64,000 nt of DNA from the NCBI RefSeq assembly GCF_000143415.4, contig NW_003314291.1:1530517-1594516 (forward strand), written 5' to 3'. The notes beneath the pieces are model-generated. The model was not told the DNA's origin, did not search any database, and worked only from the letters and a program-made list of their open reading frames with translations. Of the stretch, positions 7,401-64,000 are shown piece after piece. How positions within the stretch are numbered: position 1 is the stretch's first letter; every line of letters begins with the position of its first letter. The position numbers and the translations under genes were made by a program. The stretch is from Selaginella moellendorffii (Eukaryota > Plantae > Lycopodiophyta).

Positions 7401-8508
7401 TAAGTACAGGTGCTAAGCCTAGTAAACTAACACTTGAACAAGAGGAGCTGATAAAGGGAACTAGCAATATCAACCTCCTGCCGTCATGGTAGTAAGGAAA
7501 GAATATTTGTAAGGACTGACCGACAAGTAACTTTCGATACCCGAAATGTTGCAAATGTGACTTCGGGTATCGAAAGCTACCTATCAGCCAGTCCTTACGA
7601 ACACTCTTTCCTTACTGCCATGATGGCAGAAGGTCGGTATTATTGGTTCCTTTTATCAGCCCCTCTTGTTCAAGTGTTAGTTTACTGGGCTTAGCATCTA
7701 TACTTAGCCAGATGGACATAAGGTAGGAACTTTTATGTATTTCTAGCTGAGCATACTTGGCCTAGCTCTTAGTCCTCTTTTGCTCTGTCTTGCATTGGCT
7801 TAACAAGAACCCTCGCATATTGAGGTTAGTCCTTCAATATCGCTGGATGATAGCTTACTGTGTCTGCCAAACACCCTCACTTTCATGCCCTTTGTGTTAG
7901 TCTCATTTCGGTCCCAAATGCTATTTATGGAAAGTGTCTAGATTCGCTCATTTGGCATACCTATGCAATGTAAAGATTTTCTTGAACACAATGGTATTCG
8001 TGTCGTGTCCAAATTTGCAATCTAGAGACATTCCATATTTAGGAAGTTTCGAGTTTGTCCTCCCACTTATGTTTAGTAAGTTTCAAGCTTGCCCTCTCGT
8101 TTCGAGCTTGTCCTCGTGTTAAGCCACTAGTATGCCAAAATAGTGCCAGACTCTGTTTTGCTCCATTTTGCATGTTGGTCCTGGCATTGGGATGCTAGTT
8201 GCTCTAGAACTGTTCCAAGTTGCTCCGAGCTCTTGTCCCTTCACTCCTTGGGCTGTATGCTTAGAAGTTGCTCCATGGTCTAGTTCTGTCACTCCTTGGC
8301 TCCATGCTTGGGAGTTTAGCACTGTTCCTTCATTCAGTGGCCCAAGGCCCTGAATCTCAAGTTCCAGACCACTGTCCTATGGACACATGGCATGTGACAT
8401 GTGGCATATAGAGGGTTTAGGTTCCGCTTCGTGGTGTTATCCTATGGTAAATCTCTATAGGATAAAGGGTAAAAACCACGTGTGCTACATGAAGTCACAT
8501 TTATGACA
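4450..8508 (-). mobile_element. Decayed Ty1/copia-like LTR retrotransposon: 5' LTR 6430-8508 (interrupted), PBS about 6417-6427, gag and protease remnants
   Basis: Minus-strand TGGTATC next to the LTR end, remnant WILDGG protease motif (about 5260-5275), CYN zinc-knuckle remnant (about 5680). The left boundary is uncertain. Confidence 0.55.
7547..8489 (+). mobile_element. Solo LTR of the same family inserted in inverted orientation near the end of the host LTR
   Basis: TG...CA ends. Decayed TSD CGAAA (7542-7546) / TGAAG (8490-8494). The host LTR terminus resumes at 8495-8508. Sequence is the reverse complement of 6430-7546. Confidence 0.8.
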
Positions 8509-9128
8509 ATCAATAACTCTTTGAGATCCATGAACGTCCGATCACAATTCAGAGACCAGATGAAAAATGACATTAATGACTTCAGTAATGTTCGCAACAA
8601 TGCTGTGCGATCAGAAAGATGATCCATAAAAAGACTAAGATACTACACTTTGCCCAAAAAGTGTTGCACATCATTTATACACTTCGGAGTAGGGAACTTT
8701 AGAACAGCCACAAGTTTGTCAAGATGAACTTACAAACCCTCATGAGAAATACAATACCCAAGATAAATCATATCCTTGGACCCAAACATGCACTTTGATC
8801 ACTTCAACTTTAAACCAATGTCCCGTAGCTAATTCAACACTTTACAAACATCACAGACATGCTCCTCCCACGTTCCCTCCGAGTAGATCAAGACATCATC
8901 AATGAAGTCAGCAGTCACCTCTGGCATATCACAAAAAACCTCATTCATCATCTGCTGGAAAGTTACTAAAGCATTGTTCAAACCAAATGGCATCACCAAG
9001 AACTCGTATAAACCAAATGGTATATGAAAAACAGTCTTAAGAATATCTTCTTCGGCCATCGATACTTACTAATACCCAGAAGCAAGATCTAAGTGGTGAA
9101 CTAATGACTTCTCCCCAAACAATCCCAA

Positions 9129-9827
9129 TGTAAGCAACCAAAAGGGAACGACTCGAGAGACGATCCATAGGGGTTCAAATATAGAGGGAAAGGGCCCATG
9201 AACAAGAGTGCACCCCCTTTTCCAATCGGTTAAGGGTCTTGGGATATTTGGGGTTAAGCGTCCTTGGGTGTGAATAGTACTGGGCTGGGTGACCTCCCGG
9301 GAAGTCCAAACTCAGGAGCTTACATTTGGTATCAGAGGGGTCTCGGGTCCGACTCTATTGGTTGGCTAGGGGAATCACACCACATGTTGATTGACATCTG
9401 GCTGGTCCAGTTTGCTCCCGCTGGGCTCGACCCGAGGGGTAGGGTGTCAAGAGAGCGGGGCTCTCGGGAGAGCTGCGGCTCTCAGCTTCCGTTCACGAGG
9501 GCGTGAACTTGCAGGGAAGCGTGGTGGATTGTAAGCAACCAAAAGGGAACGACTCGAGAGACGATCCATAGGGGTTCAAATATAGAGGGAAAGGGCCCAT
9601 GAACAAGAACTTGCAGGGAAGCGTGGTGGATTGTAAGCAACCAAAAGGGAACGACTCGAGAGACGATCCATAGGGGTTCAAATATAGAGGGAAAGGGCCC
9701 ATGAACAAGAGTGCGCCCCCTTTTCCAATCGGTTAAGGGTCTTGGGATATTTGGGGTTAAGCGTCCTTGGGTGTGAATAGTACTGGGCTGGGTGACCTCC
9801 CGGGAAGTCCAAACTCAGGAGCTTACA
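9129..9827 (+). mobile_element. Cassandra-type TRIM (non-autonomous LTR retrotransposon with a 5S rRNA-like domain in its LTRs)
   Basis: 196-bp LTRs 9129-9324 and 9632-9827 (TGTAAGC...GCTTACA, 1 mismatch seen), TSD CCCAA, PBS TGGTATCAGAG at 9327-9337, purine tract before the 3' LTR, non-coding internal region. Confidence 0.92.
9252..9307 (+). promoter_or_regulatory. 5S rRNA-derived Pol III internal control region (A box, IE, C box) in the Cassandra 5' LTR; second copy at 9755-9810
   Basis: GGTTAAGCGTCCTTGGGTGTGAATAGTACTGGGCTGGGTGACCTCCCGGGAAGTCC matches the central part of plant 5S rRNA. Confidence 0.88.
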
Positions 9828-11127
9828 CCCAAGAGATCAATAGTATGAGGAAGAGGGTATACATCTGGGATTGTCACTTCGTTTAATGGACAATAGTCGA
9901 TGCAAAAACAAATACTCCCATCAAACTTCATCACAATATGAAGTTCATATACTCAAGGACTCCGCAACTTCCGAATAACACCCTTTTCTAACATCTCCTT
10001 GATGTTTACACATAAAATTTTGATCCCTTTAGGTGACCAAAGATGAACAAGAACCTTGATTGAACAAGCATCCCTAGTAGGAATTGGATGACGTGTGGCA
10101 ATCTTGGCCCTAGACGATAGGTCAAATTCAAAGAGATCGGAATACTAATTCATGAGCCAGTCAATCATGCAACACAAAGACTGTCGAAGGGATAGGAAAA
10201 GGGAAGAATAAAACAAGACAGAAACATAGGAGGAAGTAGTGGAGGGACAAAAGCAATAGAAACAGAGGTAGAAGAAAAGGGACAAAGAGGTGCGGAAGTG
10301 AGAGGAATGGATGAAATATAAGGAAGTATGAGACAAAGGGGAGAAGCCTCAAAGTCACACTTGGCATGATTGTGCTGCAACCAATCCATACCAAGGATGA
10401 GGTCAAAAGCTTGACTCGGCACTACCCGTAATGACTACAACCCAAGCTCAAAATTGCCCACACACACAACTAAGTCCACCTCATCTTGTGCACATGTATG
10501 TGTACGGCCGTTGCCATAAACAATGAAAACTAGCTCCACTGCATAACGCAAGTGTAAATGGCAATGTGTGGCAACAGGTCAAGCAATAGAAGATAAACTC
10601 AAACCTGTATCAACCAATACAGAGAGAAGAATAAGAGACCGCTTGTTATAAAAACGAGCTTGGAAAGTAACACTAAATGAACTAGTGCCAAGTGAACCCC
10701 CTTGATAATACTCCCAAAAGAAAGATGGAGAGGTCACTAACTTATTTGCGTAAGGTCCCTCTGATACTCATGTGATTCCTCGTTTCTTAGATGCATCTTA
10801 GTGTCTAGACCTTCTATTGCAGCAGCACCAACAAGATGTTGTTGATGCCAAGGTCTCCACCCAGGAAATGGTGGCCGCCAATCTGGAAAACACCAACAAC
10901 GCTAAGAAGTTTGACCAACTTCATCATACGCTCAACAATAAACATCACGGCCACGACCACGTCCTCCCCCTTGTCCTTGGACTCAAGTAGCAGAAGTATC
11001 AACCTCCATTAGAACAAGATCATCACCCACAAAAAGTGGAGCTAATGTAAAGAACCAACTCACCAAGGTGTCGTAGGCTAAAGGATCCCTGAAAGCATGA
11101 CCAAAATGACAAAGAGTTCATCGGATG

Positions 11128-11389
11128 GGACTGAGTCAAAGATCGAGTCCAAGACCGACTCTGAGACCAAGTTCGAGATAGAGTCCGGGATCGAGTCCGA
11201 GGCCGAATCGGAGACCGAGTTCGAGATAGAGTCCGAGATCCAAATCGGGTCCAAGATCGAGTCCGAGGTGGAGTCCGAAGTCGAGTCCGAGATCGAGTCC
11301 AAGATCGAGTTCGAGATCGAGTCCGAGACCAAGTCTGAAGTCGCGTCCGAGATCGAGTCCGAGATCGAGTCCAAGACCGAGTCTGAGTA
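11128..11389 (+). repeat. Hexamer-based (GAGTCC/GAGATC/GAGACC) array inside family A LTRs; also about 17475-17700, 53265-53410 and 57435-57635
   Basis: Direct reading. Copy number differs between LTRs. Confidence 0.9.
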
Positions 11390-12228
11390 CTAATATGGGT
11401 CAAGGGGTGAAAGCCCAAAGCGTGTGTCTCCCAGGGGGGAGGGCTGCAGGGGGTTCCAAAAGTATAGTAGGGATAGTGAGGTCCAGGAACTAGTCTTAAA
11501 GGAACTGTGCTTCCAAATTGACTTGAGGTTGAGACTGGGGCCGAGGGGCCTTAGGTGGGAGTGAGCAGGGACTTGGGTGGTGCCGGAGGGGCCACCCTAG
11601 GAAGTGCTCAAGAGCAGCTCCCACTCCCGAAAGGGAAACCGACTGCAGTGCTCCCGGCTCATGTGGAGTGGTGCCCCACTTGAGTACCATGCAGCTCATT
11701 GGTCCTCCCCCTTCCTAGGGGCTTGCGCCTTCCTTTGGGATGGAAGTGGGGGGGTAGAGGTACCCATACCGGGTTGTTAGGCCATGGTATTTCGCTCCAG
11801 CATCCCAAGGCAAGTGTTGCACCCAAGGCTTAGGATTTAGAGGGTCCCATGATCAATCCTTGTGGTACCAAGGGGTATTAGGAACCTGGAGGCTTGGTGT
11901 GCTTGGCTACTTGTGCCTGCGGGGAGTGTAGCCGAACCTTAAGTCTAGTCTAACCTAGGGAGGGGGATTGAGAGAGATTTGGAAATCCGTGGATGGATGG
12001 CTAACGCTCTGTTACTCGTGCAGTGAGTAGCTGAAACCAAGTAGGCCCAGGTAGGAGCTGGTACCATAGGCGGGAACCTTGGCGAGGGAACTTAGCTAAA
12101 GCCAAGGCAGTGTTGGACGGGTAGACAAGGTAAGCTGGCAAATTGGAAAGGAAAAATTTGTGGCTTACAATTTGGTATCAGAGCCTTTTCCTTAGTTCTA
12201 GCGAAGGATAGAGGCAGATTGCTGGGAG

Positions 12229-15200
12229 ATGGCAAAGGCAGTGCAGAAGCGAACCAAGGCGAAGACGGAACCTCCTCCAGAGCTGGAGCCTCCAGTCAAA
12301 CGAGAGGCTATGGATGAGGAATCCTTGCATGAGAAGGACTTCAATGAGGAAACTTCCAAACAGGAGTCCGGTGGCAAGGTTCGGTCGTCCAAGGCTCGAT
12401 TGGACGTTCTAGAAGGACAGTTGGCACAAACCAATGCCCTGCTGGAGACTCTCGTACGCAAGCTAAAGCGTGACGAGAAGCGGAAGAAAAAGCGAAAGAC
12501 TGCGGATGCTGGCAGCACAGAAAGTGCGGACCCTTCGGTAGGGACTGAGGCAGAACCAAACAAGGTCGAACAGACCGAAGTGGAATCAGTCCCTCAAGCA
12601 GTTCCCAAGTACAAACCAAAGCCCCCACCGGTCTTCAAGGGAGTGAATGACTATAAGGTGGTGGAGGATTGGTTTTACGATATGGAGGACTACTTCTGAG
12701 CGTTGTGATTACCGAGCTCGGAGAAGGTCCCATGTGCAAAACCATACTTGGCAAATAATGCCAAATCTTGGTGGAGAATGACGGAGGCCAATGAAGGACC
12801 GGTGGCCACTTGGGACATGATGAAGGTGAGGATCCGCACAACTTACATTCCTCCGAATGCTACTCTGCATCTAAGAGACGAGCTGATTAGGCTGAAGCAG
12901 ACCAGAACCATTCAGAAGTATGTGAATGGGTTTATGGCAAAGAGGATATTTGTCACAGACATGGGGGATATGGATGTGTTCCATGCCTTCATATCAAGTT
13001 TACAAACCTAGGCTTGCAGTGAGATGATGCGCTGGAACCCGACCAACTACAAGGAAGCGTTGGATGCGGCCATCAAGGTGCATTTCAACGATAACCTGCG
13101 AAAAGGGAACGCGACAGGGTTGGGGTCCACATTTAGCAAAGGGGGCAAACCAAGGGGAATGTATAACAAAGGGAAATTCAAGAAGAGTTTCTCTAAGAAT
13201 GAGTCCTCGGGGTTCCGGAAAGGCAAATCCGGTGGTCAGCGAGCGAGTACGTGGGGGAGTCAAGCAAAAAGAGACAAACCCACGGATAAGAAGGCCAAGT
13301 CGTTTAACAGCATGGGAAACAACGTATGCTACAACTGTGGTGAAGCGGGACACTTTTCGAGGGAATGTCCCTACCCGAAGAAGGCCAGAGCCAATATGGC
13401 CATTAAGTCGGGTGAAATCTAAACTGAGGTATGTGATCCAGTCCCTAGCTCAAAGTTACTCATTACACGAGCAACTTTGGTAGAGAGTCGTTCGCGACAT
13501 CTACTAACCCTCCAAGGGAAGCTCGGGGGTAGCTTTGTTAAGATTCTTATTGACACGAGTGCTTTGGATAAAATTGTGGCTGCAAACATAGTCCGGCAAG
13601 CCGGACTAATGGTGTAGCGGCTGGGCAAACTGAGGACTATAGAGTTTGTTCAAGGTAGCCAAAGCACCGATGAGGTACTTCAACAAACAAGAGTCGAAGT
13701 AGGGACTTAGAAAGTAGACATGGATTTCACCGTGTTGGACATGGCGGGATTTAACGTGATCTTCGGGATGGATTGGTTCAATCGGTTCATGGTAGCCCTG
13801 CATGGACAAGGTAGGAACTTTGTGGTGCTAGCGAATGCCCAAGGAAGAAGATCTAGGGTGGAGGCCCAAGATCTAAAGGTAGGGCAATGCAAGGCCAAAA
13901 ATTCGTGCCTAAACTTGGTGTCCACGAGGGGACAACTCACTAAAAGGACCAAAGTTGCATTTTTGTGCTTACTCTCGGTGAGGAGTGACAAAAAGACAGG
14001 AACGAAAGAAGTACCTTTAGTGATCCAGCGGGTGTTGGACCAATTCCAGGATACCATGCCAGAGGAGCTACCAGCGGGGTTGCCCCCTGCACGACCGATA
14101 GAACATAAGATTGAGCTGGTCGAGGGTGCTGAGGTGGTGGTTCGTCCCCCCTATCATTTGAACGAAAAAGAACTCGCGGAGCTCAAGTGCCAACTAGAGG
14201 AGTTGGTGGACAAAGGGTATGTTAGGTTGAGCAAGTCGCCGTATGGGGCGCTGGTTCTATTTGTGAAAAAAAAATATGGATCTATGCGCATGTGCATAGA
14301 CTACCGGTTGCTCAACAAATATACAAAGAAGAACAAGTACCCTTTGCCAAGGATTGAGGACCTGTTCGATAGATTAGGAAAGGAAAAATACTTTTCAAGG
14401 ATTGACCTAAGTTTAGGATACTACCAGATCAAGATAGCAGAGGAAGATGTCGAGAAGACAACTTGTCGAATGAGGTATGGGAGCTTCGAGTTTCTTGTAA
14501 TGCCCTTCGGGCTATGCAATGCGCCGGCAACGTTTTCGGCGTTGATGAACCATATCTTTGTACCCTATTGGGATCACTTTGTGGTCGTCTATATTGACGA
14601 CATCCTGATCTATAGCAAAACACTAGAGGAGCATGCCAAACACTTGACGAAGGTGTTTGAGAAACTAAGGGAACACCAGCTGTATGCTAAAGAGAGCAAA
14701 TGTGACTTTGCTCAGCAAGAGGTAAAATTTCACGGGCATGAGGTGGGCAAGGACGGGCTCAAGGTGGACCCTGAGAAGGTCCAAGCGATCCAAGATTGGG
14801 AGCGACCATCGAATGTACACGAGTTAAGGGCATTCTTGGGGCTATGTAACTACTATCGAAAGTTTATCAGACACTATTTGAGAGTAGCCCTACCCTTAAC
14901 GGACCAAACGGGAAAAGAGAAGATGGTATGGACAGCGAAAGGCAAGGCAGCATTCGTTCACCTCAAGGGGAAGTTGAAAAAGGCTCCCGTGTTGGCGTTA
15001 CCAAACTTTGGTAAGGACTTTGAGGTAAAAACGGATGCTTCAGACTTTGCGTTGGGCGCAGTTTTGAAGCAAGACAACCATCCAGTAGCGTTCTTCTTGA
15101 AGAAGTTGGACAAGGCTCAACAGAAGTGGCCTACCCATGAGAAGGAATTGTTTGCTGTAGTCAAGGCGCTCAAGGAGTGGCGACACTACCTTGGGAGACA

Positions 15201-16954
15201 CTTCAAGGTTTACATGGACAATGTGGCAACAAAACACTTCTTGTCACAGCCCAACCTGAGGGGAAAATAAGATCGGTGGGCCAATGCTTTGGCCGAGTTT
15301 GATTGCGAGATTCTGTACAAGCCTAGGAAGAGGAACATCGTGGCAGATGCGCTAAGTCAAAAAGCAAGCTTGAAGTTGGCGATATCCAGCGCGACAACAA
15401 CCTTTTGGGATGATGTGCAGACCACATACGAGAACGATGGTCTAGCACAAGAAGTGTTGCTGAGGAATCTAGAGGCATGTGAAGCTCACCAGAGAGGTGA
15501 GCTACCAACGAAAGAGAAAACAGGCTATGCGGAACGCAACAGACTTATATATTACAAGCAAACAAGGGTGTATGTTCCAGAAGGGGAACTAAGGAAGGTA
15601 GTCTTAGAAGAGTGTCATGACGGACCTTTTGCGGGACACGGCGGAGTGCCCAAGACGATGGGCTTACTCAAGAGGAAGTACCATTGGCCAGATATGGCTA
15701 AGGACGTCCAAGACTATGTAAAGACATGTCCAACATGTTAGCAGGTCAAAGCTGTGACTAAGGCTAGTGGGGGCTTGTTACAAAGCATCCCAATTCCAGA
15801 TCGTCCGTGGAAATGTCTTACGATGGACTTCATCACGGGACTCCCTCCAAGCGAGGGGTTCAATGTGATATTCGTGGTGGTGGATCGATTTTCGAAGATG
15901 GCACATTTCATACCCACCATAACGGAAATGGATGCGGAAGGTGTGGCAAAGTTATTCTTCGAACAAGTGATTCGAGTGCAGGGAAGGCCAAAAGAGATTA
16001 TTTCAGATCGAGATAAGATCTTCACCAATAGGTTCTGGAGAACACTCCTAGAACAATATCGCACCAAATTGAAATTCAGCACAGCCTATCACCCACAAAC
16101 AGATAATGGGTATTAAGTCAAATTTGATGGCACTAACACTTCTTGACAGACAAACAAACGGAAAGGGTGAATAGGCAGCTGGAGGATTATTTGCGATGCT
16201 ATGTCTCGGGAGACCAGACCGATTGGGTAAGTCATTTGGGACTTGCGGAAATGTGTTATAACAACTCACCACATTCGAGCATCGGGGTGAGTCCATAGGA
16301 AGTCATCAATGGGCGAGCTATTGAAGGTCCTGTGGCCGAGTATCATGGAGAGTTACCCGCAGTGGAGGCATTCGCGGCAGAAAGACTCAACATTTGGAAT
16401 CTAGTGAGGGATTCCTTGGAACGGGCTCAACAAAGGCAAACCAAGTACGCGAACCAGAAGCGTCAGAATGTAGAGTTCCAAGTTGGGGAGAAGGTGTGGC
16501 TGAACACCAAGAACCTCAGGCTATCAAGTGGGATCAGCCGGAAGTTGACCCAAAGGTAAAAAAGCATGTATTCCTGTAAATGAATTGATCTTAAGTTCCT
16601 TAAGCAGATTCGTGGGGCCATTTGAGATTGAGGCTCGAATCGGTAAAGTGGCTTACTGTCTCTGACTTCCTCGAAAGATGGGGAAGATGCACCCCATGTT
16701 CCACGTGAACTTACTCAAGCCGTATTTTGAGGATCTGCTTCGCAAGGACCAAGTAAGGCCTTTACCTGAGGTTATCCAAGGGGAAGAAGAATACGAAGTT
16801 GAGGCCATCCTCAATGCGTGCAAGACCAAGCGACAAGGACGCGAGATGAGAGAGTTCCATGTGAAGTGAAAAGGATTTCCACACTGCGAAGCAACATGGG
16901 AACCGAAGGAGAACCTAGCGAACGCGCGAGGTCTAGTGGAGGAATTTCTGCAAG
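12229..16954 (+). pseudogene. gag-pol of family A copy 1; integrase interrupted by introns at 16103-16149 and 16556-16607
   Basis: In-frame ORF pieces from 12229 to about 16100, separated by C>T-type stops. Frame is restored across the two insertions only if they are spliced. Confidence 0.9.
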
Positions 16955-19659
16955 GCAGAACTCTATGTACTTATACAAAGTTCAATTAAAGTATTAATTT
17001 GTGAAGTTGAGCAATAGCATATGTTGGGACCCAAAGGCGCGCCGAAGGTAAGCTAATTAGCATGGGTTAGCTAGGTCGACCAGGCATAGGGAACTACGCC
17101 CGACTCCCTGCGGGGATGTCAAATCCGTAGACGTATTCTACGGAGGTTGGGTTCGAGTCCCAACCCCTTAGTAAAGCAAGGCTGGGTTCAAGTCCCGACC
17201 CCATACTAGGGCGTGGTGAGGTGAGAAGTATAGGGACACCTATATTCCGTTGTCATGGGCTCTTGGCCGGGGAGGCTAACTTAGGCACACCGCTAAGTGG
17301 GGGGATGCCCCCCGAGACATGGTCAATAAGTCATAGGATAAAAAAGAGACATTCGATGTGGGTATTGAACTTCTTCTATGGGTGGTGGAGTTGTAAGGAA
17401 CCAACTCGCCAAGGTGTCATAGGCTAAAGGATCCTCGAAAGCATGACCAAAATGACAAAGAGTTCAATGGATGGGACCAAGTCGAACATCGAGTCCAAGA
17501 CCAACTCTAAGACTGAGTTCGAGATAGAGTCCGGGATCGAGTCCAAGGCCAAATCGGAGACCGAGTTCAAGACCGAGTTTGAGACCAAGTTTGAGATAGA
17601 GTCCGAGATCCAAATCGGGTCCAAGACCGAGTCCGAGGTGGAGTCTGAGATCGGGTCCGAGATCGAGTCTAAGATCAAGTCCAAGACCAAGTCCGAGTAC
17701 TAATACAGGTCAAGGGGTGAAAGCCCAAAGCGTGCCTCTCACAAGAGGGGGGGGGGGCTGCAGGGGGTTCCAAAAGTATAGTAGGGATAGTGAGGTCTAG
17801 GAACCAGTCTTAAAGGAACTCTCCAGTGGTGTTTCCAAACTGACTTGAGGTTGAGACTGGGGCTGAGGGGCCTTGGGTGGGAGTGAGCAGGGACTTGGGT
17901 GGTGCCAGAGGGGCCACCCCAAGAAGTGCTCAAGAGCAGCTCCCACTCCCGAAAGGGAAACCAACTGCAGTGCTCCCGGCTCATGTGAAGTGGTGCCCCA
18001 CTTGAGTACCATGTGGCTCATTGGTCTTTGCCCTTCATAGGGGCTTGGGCCTTCCTTCGGGTAGAGATATCCATACCGGGTTGTTAGGCCACGGTATTTC
18101 GCCCCAACGTCCCAAGGCAAGTGTTGCACCCAAGACTTGGGATTGAGAAGGTCCCATGATCAAGTCTTGTGGTACCAAGGGGTGTTAGGAACCTGGAGGC
18201 TTGGTGTGCTTGGCTACTTGTGCCTACGGGGAGTGTAGCTGAACCTTAAGTCCAATCTAACTTGGGGAGGGGGATTGAGAGAGATTTGGGAATCCGTGGA
18301 TGGATGGTTAACGCTCCGTTGCTCGTGCGTGAGTAACTGAAACCAAATAAGCCCAAGTAGGAGCTGGTACCATAGGCGGGAACCTTGGCGAGGGAACTTA
18401 GCTAAAGCCAAGGCAATATTGGATGGGTAGATGAGGTAAGCTGGCAAATTGGAAAGGAAAAATTTGTGGCTTACAGCTAAATGACGTCTAACGAAAAGTG
18501 GAAGAGGTGACGTCTTATAATGTTATGCTAAGCGAAGAACATCATCAAAGGTGGTTGAAACAAGTGCATACATAACAAAATTTTGATGAAGTGCTAGCCA
18601 CAACATTCTTAGCTTGATATACTTCGACATATTTGGCTCTGCATGAAGCAAGAGGCTTTGGAAACAAATGCCAAATTGCATCACAGACTCAAATGGCACT
18701 TAACAAAGACAATGCAATTGTAGGAAGGCATCATCACAATCGTCGGCATGTCTGAATGCATGTTTGAAGACATTTGAGAGAACACTCCAATCCCCATAAG
18801 TGGTTGCACTCAAACCATTATACTACTATAACGCTATGCTTTGGAGACATGTGGGAAACTTACGCAAATGTCGAACACCATCCCAAAAATGATATGTGGC
18901 AGTCACCATAAAGTGATCGAATCAATGATACATATCATCCCTAGGATTCCCGCGAAAGAACTCCAGCCAAACGTGAGGATTGGCACAAAGAGCAGAAGGA
19001 GTTGTACCATGTGCTGTGAATGTTGCCATCAATTGAGTTTAGTTATTCAATTGCAATTGTATAACATCAAACGATTGCACCAATTGCTACTTTAGAGTCA
19101 AAGGAGGAGGAGATTGTTGATTTACCATGAAGATGAATGAAAATGAAAGAGCAAAAGAAGAGAAATGAAAAAAACTAAAAGGAAATGGAGATCTAGACAT
19201 TGCAAAAGCTAAATCTAAACCAAAATCCTGAAAGGAAAGAATAAAAGAAAAGAAATATAAAAAATTAAATCTAGACAATGTAAAAGTTAAATCTAAACTA
19301 AAATCATAAATCCAAACACTCCTTAGGGATAATCAAAGGTGCCCTTCACCTCCATCAATGTGAATGCATGGAATATAAAAGGGAAATACAAAAAATGTGC
19401 ACATCAATTAGCCCAAAAACCTTAGCTTATATACAAGAGCGAGTAATCCAGATTGAAATCAATCCAATGGCTACCAAAATCCCACTATGCTAATATTAGT
19501 ATACAACATTGTAGCCGTACACTTGGACCTCACAAATTTAAGTTTTAATATATATTTAGTAAATATATATATTATAATTTTAAATATTTTATTATTGTAT
19601 TTATTTTTCTAGATTCATTAAAGCAACTTTTTTCAGTTTCTTTAAAATGTATTTGAGAT

Positions 19660-23981: not shown

Positions 23982-26900
23982 TGAAACGAACAAGAGAGCG
24001 AACCCTAGGCCAACCTCCCAACCCTTAAGGCGTTACGGCCTTAAATCCCACAGGCCATGGAATATTCTCGGAATATTCCCGTGGTTCGTGTCATTCTCCC
24101 CTCCCTCATGACCCAGCCACATACGGTAGCCTCGAGAAGCTAAACGAGCCTCAAATGAAGGGAGTCCAAGGCAATACGGCCATGGAGAAAAGATGTGCAA
24201 ACGGCAACACCAACGTCGCAACAAACGGTCACGAAAGAAAGAAAGCAATACAGCTTTCTCACATGACAATACGGTCATGGAAAACAAGAGAATGAGAATA
24301 GAACAAACGGCTCAAATCATATAGCAATCCTGCTATAAAACTCAATTCTCCCCTTCCTCAGGAATGTCATCCAAGTCATAACCAAAACTCAGAAACACTC
24401 TTTTCACGTCATCCTCAGTTTCCCATGTAGCTTCGTCCATGGAATAACCATTCCACTGAACTAACAACTCCCTAGTTGTTTTCCGGCGTGTTTTCACCAA
24501 TCTTTGAGCAAGAATATTGGCCGGACCAGCCTTCTCTGCATCAATCTCTGGAACCTGGATGATGGACTGATCCACAATATCACCAGAGTGCAAACACACT
24601 TTAAGCTTGCTCACATGGAACGTTGGATGAATCTTTGAACTAACTGGCAAGTCCAAAGTGTATGCAAGATCCCCTACACGCTGTAAAATTGTCCAAGGTC
24701 CACAATACCGTGGAGACAACTTAGCACTGCCACCTCCTTTTAGAGACCGTTGTGCATCCGACAGCTTAAGGAAAACCTTGTCACCAACTTTGTACTCTTG
24801 ATGACGACGATGCTCATCAGCCAATCTTTTGTCTCGTTCTTGAGCTTGCCTCATGTTCAATTTTGCCAACTCAAGCTTGTCTTGCATATCCTCCAGGAAA
24901 TCACAAGCATGAGGAACCCGAACCAAAACCAAATTCAAACTCACAGGAGACCTAGGCTCATAGCCATACATCGCCATAAAAGGAGACATGCCAATAGCCG
25001 ATTGATGAGCGCTATTGTGAGCAAACTGAAGCAAAGGCAAGTATTTTTCCCATACTCCCTGTCGAGTCAAGTTTCCCACAAAAGACCGTAGCATATCTTC
25101 TAATAGTTGATTCATGCGCTCTGTCTGCCCATTAGATTGTGGATGCTCACCACTACGCATGCTCAGTTTAGTCTCTAGTTTTTCAAAGACCGTTTGCCAA
25201 AACTTGGACGTGAACTTAGGATCCCGATCACTCACAATGTCACCTGGCAAACCATAGAGACTGAATAACCGGTCTACAAACAACTGAGCAAGTTCAGAAG
25301 CTTTTATCGTTGTCTTCACAGGGAAAAAGTGAGCCATCTTCGTCAAACGATCCACAACAACCCAAATAGCATCATTTCCTCGAAAGGTTTTGGGCAAACC
25401 AGTGATAAAGTCCATCGAGATGCTATCCCACTTATTCTTGGGTACACGTAAAGGATGATAGAGGCCAGCGAGCTTCTGATGATCAACCTTGACCGCCTGG
25501 CAGGTCAAACAACCACGTACATACTTCTCAACATCTGACTTCATCCCAGGCCAAAAGAAATGCCTCTTCACCAACATATACGTTCTCAATACCCCCGGAT
25601 GCCCAGCACTTGGCACATCATGACACTCAACCAAAATCCGTTTGATGAGTTTATCAACACGAGGAACCACAACACGTCCCTTCTTCACTAGGATTCCATC
25701 TCGTATTTCGAATGACGAAAACTTGTCACTCTTTAAATCTGTAGAGGCGTCCCTCAACAAAACCTTCGCGCGAATATCAGTGATGAAGGAGTCAAAGTCA
25801 ACAAACTCCTTAAGCTCATCCAAGAGATCGCTGGATAGCTTCACAAACGAGATAGAATTTACCATCCTGGATAATGCATCAGCCACCTTATTATCACCTC
25901 CATGCTTGTACCGGATCTTAATAGACATTTCCTGCAGGAACTCTTGCCAACGAGCAAGACGGCCTCGAAGATCCTTTTGTCGACTGAAATATTGGAGTGA
26001 TTGATGGTCTGAATCCACATGGAAGTCCGATCCATATAGATAATGTCGCCATTCCTTCACAGCAGCAATCACAGCATATAACTCTTTATCTCGAGTAGGC
26101 CAATTCCGCTGTGTGGCATCAAACTTATGGCTCATGTACGCAAGAGGATGCCCAACTTGAAGCAAAACGGCTCCAATAGCAATGTCACTTGCATCTGTCT
26201 CAACCACAAGAGGCTTTTCAGGATCGAAAATCTTCAACACCGGAGCAGAGATACAACACTGCTTCAAACGTAGAAATGCCACTTCACACTTCTCATCCCA
26301 ACCATAAATAGTAGCATGTTTTGACATATTCTGGAGAAGATCAGTTAAAGGGGCTGCTATCCCTGAAAAGTCCTTCACAAATCGTCGAAAAACTCTAGCC
26401 ATACCAAGGAAACTACGGAGATCATGCACTGTTGAAGGTATAGGCCAATCAACCACGGCCTGAATCTTTGCAGGATCAGCTCTCACTCCATGTACCGAAA
26501 TCAAATGCCCGAGATATCCAATCTCCTCTAAAAAAAACTCGCACTTGGATAACTTCGAGTAGAGCTTGTTGTCCCTCAAAAGTTGTAAAACACTTCGCAC
26601 ATGCATCTCATGTTCCTCCATGGAAGAGCTGAATACCAGGATATCATCAAAATAATCAATTGCAAACTTTCCCAAGTAAGGTTGTAGAACTTGATTCATC
26701 AATCTCTGAAAAGTTGCAGGAGCATTTGTCAAACCAAATGGCATCACTAAAAACTCGTAGTGACCTGTCCTTGTCCGAAATGCAGTTTTCGGAACATCCT
26801 CGGGCTTGACACAAATCTGATGATATCCTTGCCTCAAATCAATCTTTGAAAAATATCGAGCACCACGAAGACGATCGAGCAAATCATCAATACGAGGGAT

Positions 26901-29117
26901 CGGGAACATATTCTTCACTGTCCTATCATTCAATCCCTTGTAATTCACACAGAGACGCCATGTACCATCTTTCTTTTTGACCATCACCACCGGAGCAGCC
27001 CAAGGAGACTTGCTGATCCGTAACCACCCTTTCCGAAGGTATTCAGCAAGCTGCCTATTAATCTCCTCATCTTCAGCGGGACTAGTATGAGTCGGTTGTC
27101 GCTGAAAAGGAGTAGCTCCAGGAACCAAGTCAATCTCATGCTGAATTCCACGTTCTTGAGGCAAACCATCAGGTAACTCATCCGGAAATACGTCACGGAA
27201 CTCCTCGTGAATGGAATCCACCTGTGCCTCATGCCCACGAACGTACTCCAAATCAGACATGATCATATTAGAAAGAAACTGGTACACCACAAAAGAATTA
27301 GCTATCTCATGCATGCATGTCACCAACTCCAAAGCGTTAATCAATGGAGTATCACTATTGTCTGTCCCGACAATCTCTTTGATAGTGCCACCAACTTCGA
27401 TATGCAGAACATTACGCTCCCAATCGATTCTTGGCTTNNNNNNNNNNNNNNNNNNNNNNNNNNNNNNNNNNNNNNNNNNNNNNNNNNNNNNNNNNNNNNN
27501 NNNNNNNNNNNNNNNNNNNNNNNNNNNNNNNNNNNNNTGTCATAAAACCATTCCTTCCCAAGAATAACGTCTGTGCGACCAAGATCCATAACCTGAAACG
27601 AAGGATGGTCGAGAATCCCTTGAATCGTCAAAGGAACACTCGGAGCCCATTCACCGTAAACACGAGTGCTATGTCCATCTGCCATAACCACCTCGTAGAT
27701 TACTGAACTCTTTTCCACAGGCAAACCAAGTTTCTTCACCACCTTGGAGCTCAAAAAATTGTGTGTAGCACCTGGATCGAAAAGAATACTAACAGCATGT
27801 CCTTGAATGTCCCCCTTGGCCTTCACAAGTTGATTGCGCATAGAACCATTAATCTCTACAGAGTTGATACAAACTCGAGACTTAGATTCTTGAATTTTTG
27901 CCACAGGGTGTGGAAGAGCCACCACAGCAGATGCCTGAGCTGTATCCACGATGGATTCCACCACATTCACCTTAGCATTCTTTGATCCCTTCACAAGAGG
28001 ACAATCTTTGCCATGATGTCCAGCCTTATGACAACGAAAACAATTGCCCTCCACCTTGTCCTTCTCTCGTTGGTCTAACCGATGTCTTTTTGCCTCATTG
28101 CCATCTCCACTCTTCGAGCTACGACGAAGCAACGGCCGTTTCTTCCCTGAAAATGAAGTATTGGTGGGTTGGTCATCACGTTGACCACCCCGGAGACCAT
28201 CCTTTTGACCAAAGTTGACCGAGTTGACCGACGGTTTGGGCGAAAAGATTTGAGCCTTAGTGATAGCATCAGTCAATGTTGCTGGAAAATCCTTCTTGAC
28301 CTTCTGCTGCACATCCATCGAGCTCAATCCTTTGATAAAACATTGCACCTTTAGTAGCTCATTATAGGTGCCCGTGAGACTAAGGCAAAGATCACGGAAC
28401 TTGCGGGCATACGCATCCAAAGACAAAGTCCCCTGCCGGATCTTTAACAACTGATTCACGAGATCAACCTCTTCAAACTTCTTGACAAATGAAGCACGGA
28501 AAACCTTTGTCAAATTAGTCCAAGAAGTCGACGTTGGATTAGCTTTGATGTAGTTCTTCCACCACGAAGAAGCATGGCCCGAAAGCTTCGTCACAAAAAA
28601 ATCTATCTTTACCTTATCCTCACAAGGATTGTGAGACCAACAACTTTCCCACAATTCCAACCAAGAATCAACCTCTTGACTATCACAAACATCCGGTGAT
28701 GATTTCCATTCCACGATACCATAATCCTTGGCATGCTTGACATACCAATGGTAATCACGGACATGAGATTGATTCAACCCTTGAGGGTTCATGCGAAGCA
28801 AGAAATCCTTAATGAGATTGACAGAATCCTTAACCTCCTTTATGTCGCTCTGAACCGCAGAAATCTGGCGTCCTTGCCGCACAACGACATCATCAAGAGT
28901 CTCTTCCGCATCATCATGGCTATCCTCACTAACGCCATACTCCTCATCAAGATCAATATCTTGCTCACCCGCCATCCCCAAAAGAACGTGCTGCTCCGAT
29001 ACCAATGAAACGAACAAGAGAGCGAACCCTAGGCCAACCTCCCAACCCTTAACGCGTTACGGCCTTAAATCCCACAGGCCATAGAATATTCTCGGAATAT
29101 TCCCGTGGTTCGTGTCA
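23982..29117 (-). mobile_element. Compact, apparently intact Ty3/gypsy chromovirus (Reina-like), family B
   Basis: 112-bp LTRs 29006-29117 and 23982-24093 (2 mismatches seen), TSD ATTAA, PBS TGGTATCGGAGC at 28993-29004, PPT at 24094-24107. Confidence 0.96.
24342..28975 (-). CDS. Gag-Pol polyprotein (gag, CCHC, PR, RT, RNase H, IN, chromodomain); probably a single ORF across the N gap
   Basis: [43 protein letters not shown] and [16 protein letters not shown] motifs. No internal stops outside the 100-N gap at 27438-27537. Confidence 0.92.
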
Positions 29118-29344
29118 ATTAAAACCAGAAGGACAAAACGTGTCTGCTAGGCTTCAAGCCACATAGTAAAATTCTCATTTTTTATGGTTCCTATTGCCAA
29201 TCACAAAAACAGTGAAAGTCAAGACATAGAGGAAATAACAATGTCCAATTCAGCCATAAGTGCTGGTATCTCAAACGATCCATCAAAACTTTCTTTTTGA
29301 AAAGTTTCTTCTTTGTCCATGGGCTCTCTCTCGAAACTTCACGT

Positions 29345-30395
29345 TGTTCTCATCCCACTTCCAGCACAGGGAAGTTCTAATCATCTATCTCGCCCGCAAG
29401 ATCGCGCTCCTCGGAGTCACTGTGACCACGAAACTTTGCAGAAATCCTGGAAGAGCCGAGGACAATCCTGTGAATAATGGGCACGAGATTCGCCTCGAGT
29501 CCATCTCTATGGACTTGCGAGTTCCCAATGGCTTCCATGAGAAGAACTTCAACGCGCAGGCCGCCTTTTCCCAGGCCATCTTCCGAATGGAGGATCCACT
29601 CGCGGAGCTCTTGTCCCGGATCGATCGAGACGGCCCCAGAGTCGCGTGTGTCGTCTCGACTTTTACCATCTCAGTGCTCCACACGCTGCAAAGAAGGCTG
29701 GATTGGGCTTTTGGCCGGGAAACGCTGCTTGGGCTGCCATCGAATTCCACGTTCCAAAGCTCCTGGAGATAGCAGAGGTTCCTGTCGAAGGTAAAGCCTT
29801 GACCGATCTAGAAGTGTGTGCTAAGAAAACATGGAAGTTCTCAATCTTGTGATTGGCAGAGGGAGTTGACAAGCTGATTTCTTACATCCCTGGAATGCAG
29901 CTAAGATCGCAAGACATTCCACTCTTCATGCATGACAGAGAATTCCAGAAAGTCGGGGAAGAACAGTCACTGCATCGCTTCTAAGAGGATCGCACTGGAC
30001 TCTTGGTTTCTGATGAACGTTGTCCACGACATTGAGCCACGAGTTTTCGAAGCGATGAGGGAAAGATTCGGGGATCCTCCCAAGGGAGAGGCGATCTACT
30101 CGACTGGATTGAAAGAGGCTCCGGATGAATCATATCTTCCATGGCTAGACGAGCGTGATCGAGGCTCGGTCGATGTTTCGTTTGGAAGCATCTCCTTCAT
30201 GACTGCCAAGCAATTTGAGGAGATCGCGCTGGGATTGGAGGCAAGCAAGGTTCCTTTCGTCTGGGTAATACGATCAAACTCTAGTTCTACAAAGGTTTCG
30301 TGAGCAGGACTAGGATTGTTCGTGAGGTGGGCGCCGCAGCTAGAGATCTTGCAGCACGAATCAACAGGGGCTTTTCTTCACTGCAGATGGTTGGC
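29345..30395 (+). pseudogene. Family 1 UDP-glycosyltransferase pseudogene
   Basis: PRVACVVS, YLPWLDERDRGSV.VSFGS, EIALGLEASKVPFVWVIR and the PSPG-box start VRWAPQLEILQHESTGAFL; multiple frameshifts. Confidence 0.88.
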
Positions 30396-34556: not shown

Positions 34557-35495
34557 CTAGTAAAACTTAGGCGTCGCAGCCGAGCACGTCTTTGAATTCC
34601 TTATCGTAAACTTGGCTGTCCAAGCTCTTCTTGTACTCGAACAGCAGTACGTCATCTTCGAGTAACCGTAGTCATAGTCACGCTTCACGCTCCACGGCGG
34701 CGTTGGCGACAGGAACGGCGTGAGCGAACCCCCGGCACCTCCCGCGACTACGCGAATCGTCTCATTGAATTTCCCAGAGTAAACATTGGCCTCATTGCTG
34801 ATGTAAACCTCCTGCAAAGAACAGACTTTTAGTTCTTCCAAACGAATAGAAAAAACAAGAAAGAGCTCATACTCACATCATAAACCGGACAGGATCGCTC
34901 GTAGTTGTGGACGTGGCAGAAGGTGTACTTTTGCCACAAACTGCAGGCTTTCCCTGCTAAATGGCTCCGCAGTTGCGTTCTCGCTGGCTAAGTACCACAT
35001 AGAGTAGCCAAGGACGCGTATCAACCATGGCTGCTTTTCCCTGTCCGCGCTAGGGAGGCATTCCTCGATCCACTTGTACTGCCCGCTTTTTTCGCGCCAG
35101 TCGTGCTCCGAGTCGGCAATGCAGAAGTGGAAAAGCCCGTAATCCGTCGAATACCTGCAAAAGAAAATGTTTCTTAGACCTACTAGAACTTTTCCTATGA
35201 TTAAAAGATCGAAAGCACCGTCACTTCCGGAGTCCTGTGTTATAAAAAGAACCGAGTTAGGCCAATCCCGTTAATGATATCCACTTCAAAAGGATAATTG
35301 TAATTTTATGTATAGTATACCTGGCCGTCATATAAGGGACACGTGAAGTCATTCCTTCAATCTGTTCCGTGAACTGATCCCATTGAGAAATATACCCTGT
35401 TGCATAGGATAAGTCTCCAATGTGGAAAATAATGTCAATGTCGTCTCTTTCTTTTGTGATCGTGTCGGCTGTGTTCAGTGAGCCAAAATGAAATC
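34557..35495 (-). pseudogene. Purple acid phosphatase (NPP/PAP1-24-27 type) partial pseudogene with introns
   Basis: IDIIFHIGDLSYA.GYISQWDQF, RDWPNS, YSTDYGLFHFCIADSEHDWRE, HVHNYER.CPVY and GGAG..WSVKRDYDYG motifs; stops, frameshifts and missing 5' part. Confidence 0.88.
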
Positions 35496-35543
35496 ATCGT
35501 ACATCATTGATCCATCTCTTTCGCGCTGTGTGATCCGTTAGAT

Positions 35544-35567
35544 GAGAGAGAGAGAGAGAGAGAGAGA
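35544..35567 (+). repeat. (GA)12 microsatellite
   Basis: Direct reading. Confidence 0.9.
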
Positions 35568-38072
35568 TAGCCGCCTTTGAGTTACCTTTCCCAGATCTCC
35601 AAATATGACAACCAGTTTTCACCGATTTAAAATATTTTATCGGACTCATCACGACCAAGTTATCTAATAACTTATGACCAACGCGATAGCTATATCTGAA
35701 CAAGTATTGCAGAAGTCAAATAAATAAACATGACACTAGAGATGGTGATTTACCTTGTGTTGGGCAATAAATCCTTCATTGATCCAGTATGAATTTGGCC
35801 GGGATCACGCCAGCCAACAGTGGACACTCGAGGTCCTGAAGAAAAGTTTTGCTATATTACGCACAAAAATTAAAATAGCCACTGACCACACGTCTCCACG
35901 AGACAATGAAAGCGTGCTGGCCGCAGAGAATAACGGAATCTTGTGAAGTGCAATGTGATCCGCAACCTCATATGAAACGAACGGAATTGCTTCGCTGGTT
36001 CGATAACCACTACTCCACGTTGATTTGTCTCTTCCCAGTGCTGACGTAATCGGGTGAAGCGGAAGCATTTTGGAAATGCACGCACAAACAAGCAAAGCTA
36101 GAAGAGAAGAAAAAAACTCCTAAAACAATGAGGAAAAGACCTTCCACGAGAACAAAGAAAATATAGAAAACAATCGAGTAGAATACAATGAGATCGAAAT
36201 GTGGGAGCAGTGCACAAATTCTGAGGATATTCCCTGACGAACTGCACACATCACACACGAGAAAGATAATTTTGCTCGAGAGCTCCTCTGTTCCTACATA
36301 CTTGAACTTTGATGGCGAGAAAACACCAATCCAATTGTTGGCTCCAGAAGACCTTTGGTGAAAGAAAACGTAGCAGCTTTACCTGCCCTAAAATATTCTT
36401 CCCGTTTATGAAAAAGGGTTCTCTGCGACCTTGCCAGTATATTTTATTATGCTACAGAGTATCTGAAGCAAGCCATACAATCGCCTTCCACTCTGCCAAC
36501 AAGATGAGTCTTCAACAATGTAATCAGTTGGGCCCGAATTGGTTGACACTCATTATATTTAAAAATGCATTTAACTATTAATAGATTTTTGTAAAGGTAA
36601 GAAATAGTAAATGAATTGTTAATAAGATTTCATAATGTGAAAATAAAAAATGTTATACTTTTGAAACATATTATTCACAATTTTAATCTAAATTATTAAT
36701 TTAGATAAGACTTAACAAACTATCATTTTAAATAAAATATGAACAAATATGCACATCATCACAAAGAAATCTAACTGATAAATAAATTTAAATTTTTCAG
36801 TGTACTAGAATGTTATCACTTTTTTTTGTGAGACAACAAAAAAATGTTTTATAAATTGTTATTTAAGAGAGTTAAATCTTGCTTTCATTTATATCTGGAC
36901 TCATTGGTTAGGGGCATGCTTGTGTTTGGATAACCAAGACAGGGCAAGGGATTGAAGCATTCTTTTTAAGTGGTCTTCCTTAAAAAGTGATATTTTCTCC
37001 TTTTTGGTTTGCTTAAGCAAACTTGCAAGGGATAGTGAATATACCTAAAATATGCTTGGATATTTTAGAATATTCTACCATCTAATGGTTCTTATTCATT
37101 TAGATTAATCTTGTATTTATAATTTATAAACATGATTATAATTTATAAACTTTCTTAAACACTTTCTAGTATATTTTATTTTGTTCTATCAGGTTGATAT
37201 GAAATAAGATTAATCTTGTGTTTATAAATTACAAACATGCTTATAATTATAAACTTTTATTTGATCAATTAGATTAATAAGTAGGAATCACACTACTATT
37301 AAACAAACCAAGCATTGCTACATGCAATGCATAGCAATTTATTTAAAAATATATCTGAAATTCTAAAGTGTAATTGGCAAAATTGATATTGAGGGGAGGA
37401 TTGATCAATGAGCAAAGTGTGTTGTGTCAGGTTGGATTTAATGGAGATATTGTTAAAATGCTTCACAATACTATACTAGTTCATAGTTTAGATGTTTTTA
37501 AGCTTTCACTGGCTAATAATGTTATTAGGTGCCTAAAGGCTGTCCTGTTTTTATGAAGGGCAGCTCAAGCTGGAGGTTGTGAAAACACAAGTGCCTATAA
37601 ACTTTGTAGGAAATTTTTCTATGAAGCAAAAGCCAATATCTCTCAACACTACAGCGGACATTGGCCAGCAAAAGGCAGCAACAATTCTTCAAGCTGCATA
37701 CTAATCCACCCTTCTCATAGCAAACAACAACAAATTCTCCAAACTGCATACCATAATCCACTGGTCCATGTAAAAAACAGATGAATGAATGAATGTTTTC
37801 CTTTTGCGGACACTAAGCCATGCAATTTCAATGTGTAGCGTGCACCTAACAATAGCAAGATTTTCAATTGAGTCTATTAAAATAATAATTTACTGTGTGT
37901 TGCATGAAGCAATATTTAATTTCATTAATAGTAGTATTATTTTTATTTATTGATCTAATTAATCAAATGAAAGTTTATAATTATAAAACCCACCTTCAAA
38001 CCTAAAGGAGATAAGAATCAATTTGCACGGTGCCTTTTGACTAACTTTTTCCTGTCAAACTACAAGATATGA

Positions 38073-40195: not shown

Positions 40196-42624
40196 CTAGA
40201 GCACCAATGGAGCTCCCAAGTGCAACGTTGGCTCTGCCGCCACGCGCTCCAGAATGTCGGGAAAGTGGAAGACTTCCTTCCTCTCAAATCCTGGGAATGA
40301 CGAGCAACTCTCCTCAGCTGGCTCGTTCAAATCAATCCCACCACTGCCACCACCGCCGCCACTGCCACTGCTCTCCGGCATCAGCTGGAGCGGCTCCGAC
40401 GAGTCTTCGTTTAGATCGATCCCGCTGGTGCTCAGATCAAGATCAATCCCACCGCTACTGCTCTCTGGCATGAGCTGAAGAGCGCCTCCTGGTTCAGCTC
40501 TTGTGAAAGGCAGCGAAGAAGCCTCGGAGAGAATCGAGTCGAAGCGGTGGATAAACCATGGAGTGTCGTCGCGGGGCTCTGTGAGTGAATGGTATGCCAG
40601 GATCTGCCAGTGGGAGCAGCTGAGCGAGAAGCGGTGCTGGTCCTCGCAAGACTCGTCCGTGCACGAGTACCTGTGCTCCTCCAGGCACCGCCCGTCTTTA
40701 CAGCCAATCACTTCCACGTAGAACCTCGAGTTTGTGTGCTTGGCCCGGTAAGCCAGGCTGCTGAGCCCATCGATCGTCACTTCACACCCTTGGACGAACA
40801 AGTGCTTGAGATGCAGCTCGCTGTTCAAAGCGATTTCTTGCATGCCTGCGTAAGAAACCAGTGTTAGTTTCGCGTCCCCACATAGTTACCACTCACTTTC
40901 ATCACCGAAACGGCACTTCCGGATTTCAAGCCTCTGTAGTTTGTTGCAGCCGCGAAGAACTGGTACCAATCCCATGTCGCTGCTGCCACAGTGGACAAGG
41001 GTCAGCACCCTGATCTTCTTTCCATATTCGCCAATTGCAGCCACGCCCGCGTCGGTGAGGAACTCAACATCCGCCTGGACGTCGAAGCAGAGCGTCAAAC
41101 GGTAGAGCGATCTGCATTCCCGGACGAGTGCGGTCACCCCTTCGTCCAGGCACTCCCATGGCATCTGCGAGAAATACCAATGTAAGAGCTTCCAAACACA
41201 CTAGTAACTTACGTTCTCGCCCGTGCTACTTGACTGGATGAGACATATTCGCACGTCCATCAAGTTCGGGCAGTTGTAAGCGAGCGCATAAAACGCTTCG
41301 TTGGTGATGAAAGATGGATAGAAAATGAGCTTCTGCAGGTTTCTACAGCCTTGTGCAACCGCCATAAGGCCGGCGTGTGTCACCACCCCACCGTCAATTG
41401 CAGAAGGACTCTCAACGACAAGCCTGTGTAAGTCTTTGCAAGAGTTCCCCAGCGCTTGCAACCCGTGGTCTCCAGCCAAGTCTAACACCTGGAAACATGA
41501 AAGGAACATGGAGGTGATCAATGAGACCTGGACCTGGAAAGTTGAAACACTTACCCGAAGATACTGCAGGTTAGGACAGGCTCGAAGCACCTCCGCTATC
41601 TCCACCTCGGTAAGGTTGGAGTAAGATAGGTCGAGCCTCGTCAAACGAGAACTGACCGACATAAAAGCGTGCATTCCATCGTCCACTAGATCGAAGATGC
41701 CGGACAGCCCCTCCAGTGCAGTACACTTTGCCAGTAACGACGTCTCGGAGTTGCTGTTGATCCGCTCGATCCCAAGGTCACTTAAGTTGGAAGAGCACTT
41801 TTGCAGCACAGGCAAAAACCGCTCGGAGTTTTGAGTCTCGGACTCCCACAGCTTTAGCAGCTTGCAACGCTCGGCCAACTTCACCAGCACCGCTTCATCC
41901 ACGTCGCCCATCTCTATAAGTGACAAGTCCAGGTATTCGAGGGCGGGACACGAGTTTACCAGGTCCTTGAGCCATTTGGTATCACTAGTGTTATCAATCA
42001 TCGACTGTGCAAGGCCCAAGTGGGTAAGATTCCTAGAAAAAGAAAGAAAAAAAATCAGAACTTGGAATGAGCTCTAAGAAACACAAAGGAAGAGAGGAAG
42101 AGTAGGAAACCAAAAGCGACAACTTACTTGCAAAACTTGGCGAGTGCTTGGAGACCCTTGGTGCTAAAGCCGGAGCACTTGTCAAACTGCATGATCTTGA
42201 GGTTGGGACCACAGGCAGCACAGAGCTCCTCGATCTGAGAGTCGGTGATCGTCATCCTCTTGATCCGGAAGCGGTTAAGCTGGGGATGAGCTTTGATAGC
42301 TGCAATCCAAGGTCCTGCGTGGCCGGCCCAATCCCTGGGGAGTATGTCGAAATCCACGAGCCGAGGATTCCCTTTGATGGTAATCGATCTCACGCTGGGA
42401 AATCGCTCGAACAGCTTCATGGGGTTGACAGCGTACATGTTGTAGACCAGGACATGATGCCTCGTGCGAGCTTCCAGCTCGTGAAACCGCTTGCACACTG
42501 CCGAGATAGCATTTCTCTCCACGGGCTTCTTGATGTAGCCAAAGATCTTCTCCAGGACGTCGTCGATGCAGCACAGCAGGCCCCTGGAATCGTCAGGCAC
42601 CCGCCTCCTGGTGGATTCAACCAT
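40196..42624 (-). CDS. Divergent TIR1/AFB/COI1-family F-box LRR protein (COI1-leaning) with a C-terminal EAR-like extension; exons 42624-42128, 42032-41555, 41488-41213, 41164-40897, 40845-40196
   Basis: F-box DDVLEKIF..ERNAISAVCKRF, KGNPR..F..W.GHAGPWI, IKRM, CSGFSTKGL, AVAQGC, ITNE, LEIR.C, LFVQG and ILAYHSL...R.D.P. All four introns are GT-AG and frame-consistent. Confidence 0.9.
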
Positions 42625-63776: not shown

Positions 63777-63808
<32 letters not shown>

Positions 63809-64000
63809 CCGGTCTCGGTCTCGACTTCGGACTCCATCTCGGACTCCATCTCGGGTCCAGCTCGGACTCCATCTCGGGTCCAGCTCGGACTCCATCTCGG
63901 ACTCCATTTCGGGTCCATCTCGGGTCCACCTCGGACTCCATCTCGGACTCCATCTCGGACTCCATCTCGGGTCCATCTCGGGTCCACCTCGGACTCCATC
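62693..64000 (-). mobile_element. Second family D LTR, running off the window end
   Basis: Starts TGTAAGCGACT as at 58010, is colinear with it, and has the hexamer array from about 63695. Confidence 0.88.

Follow-up and report, generated by a model that had tools for sequence, protein, structure and literature searches.

The window analysed here is a stretch of 64,000 nucleotides of Selaginella moellendorffii DNA, and it contains two copies of one LTR retrotransposon. Copy 1 spans 11046-18475 (+; 7430 bp) and is flanked by the target-site duplication (TSD) GCTAA, and copy 2 is flanked by TTAGC and nested in another gypsy element; the separate TSDs reported in the original prediction were confirmed, in agreement with two independent insertions. 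The LTR-LTR divergence (K2P distances of 0.118 in copy 1 and 0.17 in copy 2) implies that both copies are old relics. The two TSDs (11041-11045 and 53179-53183) are mutual reverse complements, which may reflect chance or a target preference. The features of the element are the following:

11046-12169 (+): 5' LTR of copy 1, 1124 bp, TG..CA, with 12-nt tandem repeats, a poly-G tract and TSD GCTAA
12130-12195 (+): leader intron, 66 nt, with ends GTAAGC..CCTTAG; it covers the 3'-terminal 40 nt of U5 together with the primer-binding site (PBS) and is skipped in one transcript contig
12173-12184 (+): PBS of tRNA-Met type, within the leader intron; tRNA assignment from the available part of PMC3350952
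12229-16102 (+): coding exon 1, with Retrotrans_gag, CCHC, protease (PR), reverse transcriptase (RT), RNase H (RH), integrase (IN) zinc finger and the first two catalytic Asp
16103-16149 (+): integrase intron 1 of copy 1, 47 nt, phase 1, five codons 5' of the catalytic Glu
16150-16555 (+): coding exon 2, with the catalytic Glu and the remaining integrase core as far as the KL..R motif
16556-16607 (+): integrase intron 2 of copy 1, 52 nt, directly 5' of the GPF/Y motif, with an in-frame stop at the donor
16608-16989 (+): coding exon 3, with the GPF motif and chromodomain; includes the published 309-bp ORF3 (16678-16986)
17378-17391 (+): polypurine tract
17392-18475 (+): 3' LTR of copy 1, 1084 bp
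53184-60081 (+): copy 2, lacking the U5 end, PBS, gag and protease; its 3' LTR is interrupted by a solo LTR (58010-59671)
56050-56096 (+): integrase intron 1 of copy 2, 47 nt, GT..AG
56514-56565 (+): integrase intron 2 of copy 2, 52 nt, GT..AG

The TG..CA LTRs, the 5-bp TSD, the PBS, the polypurine tract and the Pfam domain order gag-PR-RT-RH-IN with a C-terminal chromodomain are those of a Ty3/gypsy chromovirus, in agreement with tblastn searches using intact relatives. The protease match is weak (E=0.0098), the Chromo domain is found in exon 3 of copy 2 with E=3e-14, and stop codons are scattered through coding exon 1 of copy 1. Protein searches gave no close relative, the best matches being at most about 60% identical and carrying no clade label.

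By its anatomy, set against the published description, we assign the element to SM1-Galahad of S. moellendorffii. The available part of that description places the family in the Galadriel clade and presents a consensus rebuilt from many of hundreds of copies, with an ORF1 of 3885 bp that lacks the chromodomain, followed by two shorter ORFs, one of 316 bp and one of 309 bp that carries the chromodomain (PMC3350952). The studied element shares the size (7430 bp against about 7.5 kb), the poly-G LTRs of more than 1 kb (1124/1084 bp with G7-G20 tracts, against 1076/1146 bp) and the Met PBS. From the gag ATG at 12229 to the stop codon within insert 1 (16114-16116) there are 3885 bp (1295 codons), ORF2 measures 306 bp in copy 1, or 318 bp with 12 nt that are present in copy 2 and in the sequencing runs, and ORF3, with the chromodomain, is 309 bp. 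As the figures for ORF1 and ORF3 equal those of the published consensus, the inserts described below are family-wide. The same source states that its authors found no intact copy, and that SM2-Galahad is an intact single-ORF sister family in the same species (PMC3350952).

Elsewhere in the window, long exact blocks matching an S. moellendorffii protein and split by introns define an F-box gene (TIR1/AFB/COI1-like) at 40199-42624 (-). Judging by eye, we take 29260-30300 (+) to be a glycosyltransferase-like host gene and 34560-36380 (-) to be a decayed, purple-acid-phosphatase-like one. A second gypsy family, whose RT-RH-IN-chromodomain frame is unbroken, is present at 24345-29056 (-), 51909-53183 and 60082-62482, and one of its copies hosts copy 2. 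The solo LTR that splits the 3' LTR of copy 2 (1.66 kb, TSD TACCC) is related to the LTR at 62691-64000; both contain reverse-oriented 12-nt repeats with about 70% similarity to the repeats of the studied LTRs, and possibly represent a sister family. Minus-strand RT fragments at 8500-10003 and 9129-9827 are accompanied by a 196-nt direct repeat (99%) and, at 9327, by a PBS-like site; these may mark a small young LTR-like element nested in an older one.

Two inserts interrupt the integrase core

The four inserts, one of 47 nt and one of 52 nt in each copy, were found exactly where the original prediction had placed them. Both have GT..AG ends in copy 2. The donor of insert 1 in copy 1 has decayed, as had been noted: it reads AT, and GT is present in copy 2 and in the public runs X11 and X5. 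The branch-like motifs are also there, CTAAC at -17 of insert 1 in both copies and CTAAT at -23 of insert 2 in copy 2. The inserts are AT-rich (GC of 0.31-0.38 versus 0.43-0.50 in the exons), both hold in-frame stops, and their host-like size is borne out by the introns of the neighbouring F-box gene (95, 66, 48 and 51 nt; n=4). In these respects the inserts resemble U2 spliceosomal introns. For an arbitrary skip, with the observed slip allowed, GT..AG ends are expected by chance in 2.9% of cases (47 nt) and 1.1% (52 nt).

Insert 1 had been described as splitting the motif YHPQTDGQTER. The insert does lie at this site, but the literal motif is found in neither copy, as the copies differ from it by separate substitutions and copy 2 has a stop inside it. 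Insert 2 lies immediately ahead of GPF/Y, a motif that is unbroken in all 36 homologues having it. That the inserts break the frame was evident from tblastn of intact relatives on copy 1, which align as three pieces with the frame changing at the inserts only: the frame used from gag to 16104 gives way to a second at 16137-16556 and is resumed from 16600. The approximately 4.7-kb gag-pol of copy 1 contains no frameshift besides the two inserts, and their removal restores the integrase, with a D-to-E spacing of 35 codons (the canonical value) without insert 1 and of 50.7 with it. The stop in intron 1 precedes the catalytic Glu, and a complete integrase can be made from this family only via spliced RNA, as originally proposed.

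The unspliced form is kept in both window copies, in X11 and in the published consensus, and the presence of the inserts in all of these led us to reject an assembly or sequencing artefact. Intron 1 is one base shorter in X11, with GT, CTAAC and AG unchanged. Between X11 on one side and copy 1 and X5 on the other, 5 of 47 intron-1 positions differ, against 3 of approximately 519 exon positions (p=1.5e-4), a count made by hand from 26/29 differences in which some of the five are perhaps one event. The length and interior of intron 1 thus vary between lineages, with the signals kept. In the family form, direct repeats of 5 nt (16098-16102/16145-16149) and 4 nt (16554-16557/16606-16609) flank introns 1 and 2, respectively, a sequence feature hinting that the introns arose either through an insertion that duplicated its target or through the doubling of a proto-splice site. 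The intron sequences have no other match within the 64-kb window, and no donor element was found there.

The integrase introns are removed in transcript assemblies

Eight of 23 public runs were aligned to the element; the contig runs were taken as RNA by guess, and the kind of X11 is unrecorded. The RNA junctions that had been proposed as a check were found. For insert 1, contigs of X1 and X3 and a single raw read of X17 show a skip of exactly 47 nt, which amounts to 3/8 runs from three studies (P1, P2 and P7); for insert 2, X1 and X3 show one of exactly 52 nt (2/8 runs), and a single X1 contig skips both. In the aligner output these joints are shifted by 5 and 1 bases relative to the GT-AG register, owing to the short direct repeats that flank the introns and to substitutions of copy 1 beside the junctions. 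Given the exact skips in RNA-type contigs, we rejected chance frameshifts as an explanation.

Insert 1 is kept in X5 and X11, and insert 2 in X11; contig ends of X5 fall inside insert 2 from both sides. With insert 1 retained in X5, the RNA-type runs include both the spliced and the unspliced form. In X11 a contig of depth 44 runs through both inserts and none of the 40 aligned records has a joint of 47 or 52 nt, though a deletion variant of depth 2 was detected; the run is small and covers this repeat at high depth, which suggests that X11 is shallow DNA. Six X1 contigs are listed, with similar depths (6.7-9.4), and none keeps either integrase intron or the leader intron described below. Raw reads aligned from X17, X18 and X19 number 12, 3 (partly fitting) and 0, with one spliced read among the 15, and expression of the element is low. 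The alignment of X9 (organism B) stops short of the introns. X1 contigs over 12194-15773, with small gaps in cover, show no gaps or joints that would mark an intron at the gag/protease border. Splicing of the Ogre or EVD type at that border was rejected, given the single reading frame from gag to integrase and the lack of an X1 joint there.

These results leave hardly any doubt that the two inserts are real introns of the spliceosomal type, removed in transcript assemblies and inherited unspliced by the family, as the original prediction held. Very probably they are family-wide and have passed through reverse transcription, and spliced RNA is likely to be the source of integrase for the family.

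Integrase could instead be supplied in trans, by SM2-Galahad or by a rare intron-less master, the SM1 introns being tolerated and spliced by the host by chance. The report of the family, in its available part, accords with this in that SM1 was never found intact by its describers and SM2-Galahad is intact with one ORF (PMC3350952). The synonymous-change test between copies 1 and 2 also bears on it: RT-RH (p=0.004) and integrase exon 1 (p=0.02) are constrained, and exons 2 and 3 together show a synonymous excess of 0.42 versus 0.33 under neutrality, which is not significant (p=0.08). Trans supply is nevertheless decidedly unlikely, as both introns splice to exact conserved motifs and to the 35-residue D-E spacing, exons 2 and 3 are still 40-44% identical to intact relatives, and the stops of copy 1 in exons 2-3 are absent from the aligned runs covering them.

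Some further features of the 3' region and of the runs were noted. After the chromodomain lies an AT-rich stretch (16955-17017) that holds the stop codon and starts with GT in copy 2; the X1 and X3 contigs stop 9-14 nt short of it, with no joint seen. A second donor-like AG|GTAAGC in the 3' untranslated region (17048 and 57006) is kept in both copies. Compared with run X1 over 12170-17380, copy 1 has 121 A-for-G and 62 T-for-C differences, a roughly twofold excess for which the purine-rich plus strand accounts in part.

A probable leader intron over the primer-binding site

One X1 transcript contig carries a further joint, 12129^12196, not foreseen in the original prediction, in which 66 nt with GT..AG ends are removed, corresponding to the last 40 nt of U5 plus the PBS. 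This gag contig fits the element from 12194, leaving 12170-12193 uncovered, and 30 loose letters of it match the LTR at 12098-12127 (26/30), ending directly before AG|GTAAGC. This donor is near-consensus and kept in 4/4 LTRs, and a search of 5764 element positions gave a single 66-nt GTRAG..YAG window. The joint is present in 1/4 runs aligned over that stretch, in one contig that is separate from those with the integrase splices. Among the 11 PBS sites of related loci, none has a comparable donor/acceptor pair.

The leader joint bears on the idea that the skipping contigs represent intron-less genomic copies, derived from retro-copied spliced RNA or from an older intron-free subfamily, with splicing not needed at all. 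Room for such copies is left by the guessed run types, by the loss of rare variants in contigs and by a genomic evidence made up of the two window copies, X11 and the consensus. However, X11 has no skipping contig and the published consensus keeps the break, an X1 transcript that lacks the U5 end and PBS at GT-AG borders is not a normal product of LTR replication, and retro-copied spliced RNA would itself prove splicing. We regard this explanation as highly improbable.

How the integrase introns persist admits two readings. In one, to which we lean slightly, they persist because the leader intron removes the PBS; a leader intron over the PBS offers a simpler reason for intron survival than selective packaging. 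In the other, the introns are needed for integrase but persist because unspliced RNA is selectively packaged by Gag, as the original prediction proposed, or exported by the cell, the leader splice being an optional side event. Selective packaging would give identical splicing and retention data, the leader joint was seen once, and Ogre and EVD keep their introns with no PBS removal mentioned in the available parts of their reports. It is rather unlikely, considering the near-consensus leader donor in 4/4 LTRs, the fact that precisely the PBS is removed, and that no X1 contig among those listed keeps the leader intron.

Discussion

Minus-strand synthesis requires a tRNA on the PBS, and integration requires the D,D(35)E residues. 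With a probability of roughly 60%, we propose that the family divides two jobs between two RNAs, the spliced form serving as integrase mRNA and the unspliced form as the genome. Unspliced RNA would act as the genome and also supply most of the Gag and RT, and its product would consist of Gag-PR-RT-RH and an integrase stub that ends five residues before the catalytic Glu, without chromodomain. Fully spliced RNA would yield the complete polyprotein and be the sole source of active integrase; leader-spliced RNA has no PBS and hence would not be primed, so the spliced RNA could not be reverse-transcribed. Both RNAs, or their proteins, would have to enter one particle. If the three introns are usually spliced together, few RNAs should carry the PBS and lack the integrase introns, and intron-less daughters would be rare, as they could arise only from a partly spliced RNA or by a template switch. 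The splicing rate would then set the dose of active integrase per particle, either as a fixed ratio or as a regulated switch. The chances are about even that the PBS-excising leader intron makes the integrase introns heritable, and that host splicing, by leaving either a genome with dead integrase or a sterile mRNA, thereby controls integration.

By textbook accounts, retrotransposition is recognised by the introns that are lost when an element is copied. This expectation is contradicted by a high-copy chromovirus whose integrase core contains two ordinary introns. A PBS-spanning intron provides a concrete and testable answer to how a retroelement keeps introns. Relatives were checked for the same inserts, as the original prediction had advised, and none has them (0/83 loci at site 1; 0/72 covering loci at site 2): site 1 is bridged in 81/83 related loci and site 2 in 70/72, the other four being simple frameshifts. 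The integrase of the second gypsy family of the window is likewise unbroken. None of 247 HP(Q/E)T motifs in 387 proteins points to a homologous intron, with two proteins ending two residues past the motif, and an exact 30-nt pattern gave 0 matches in metagenome contigs. Searches of open-access full text yielded no description of an LTR retrotransposon with introns in its integrase, nor of splicing of SM1-Galahad. Rice CRR elements are said to splice in the RT region.

The introns appear to have been missed in an already described family: SM1-Galahad was published as three ORFs, whereas here its breaks are spliced and a leader intron is added, and neither 'intron' nor 'splic' occurs in the available main text of its report (PMC3350952). 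A 2025 review, in its available part, names only Ogre and EVADE as notable exceptions among plant LTR elements (PMC12786077). What is new is the presence of integrase-core introns with RNA support and of a PBS-spanning leader intron, which together are a variant of splicing-controlled LTR expression. Annotation pipelines will take families of this kind for dead or multi-ORF elements, as in the present case, and others may be hidden. The family also offers a case of intron gain, its sister family having been reported as a single uninterrupted ORF.

Related arrangements are known in several systems, which we compare on the available parts of the reports cited. In Penelope-like elements introns also survive retrotransposition, but these are not LTR elements and the route of retention is unexplained (PMC8557442). 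The Ginger1 DNA transposon has 1-4 introns in a gypsy-like integrase, but it carries TIRs and has neither RT nor an RNA step (PMC2836005). The identity of our element as a Ginger transposon was rejected, as LTRs and RT are present.

In foamy viruses the major splice donor is located within the LTR, ahead of the PBS. Foamy viruses resemble the studied element in that Pol comes from a spliced RNA distinct from the genome, and differ in that a single long splice removes gag, with no small integrase introns (PMC7828637). In EVD/ATCOPIA93 and BARE1, too, spliced and unspliced RNAs coexist and splicing sets protein ratios; the logic is the opposite one, unspliced RNA giving Pol and splicing giving short Gag only (PMC5580714, PMC12786077), whereas here complete integrase requires splicing. 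Ogre (Ty3/gypsy, Tat) likewise keeps its intron in the genome, splices a subset of its transcripts and requires splicing for translation of downstream pol (PMC6317226, PMC4408406). Its single intron of about 270 bp, however, lies between the gag-PR and RT-RH-IN ORFs and gates RT, RH and IN together (PMC6317226, PMC4408406), whereas the element studied here has two host-sized introns that interrupt only the catalytic core of the integrase.
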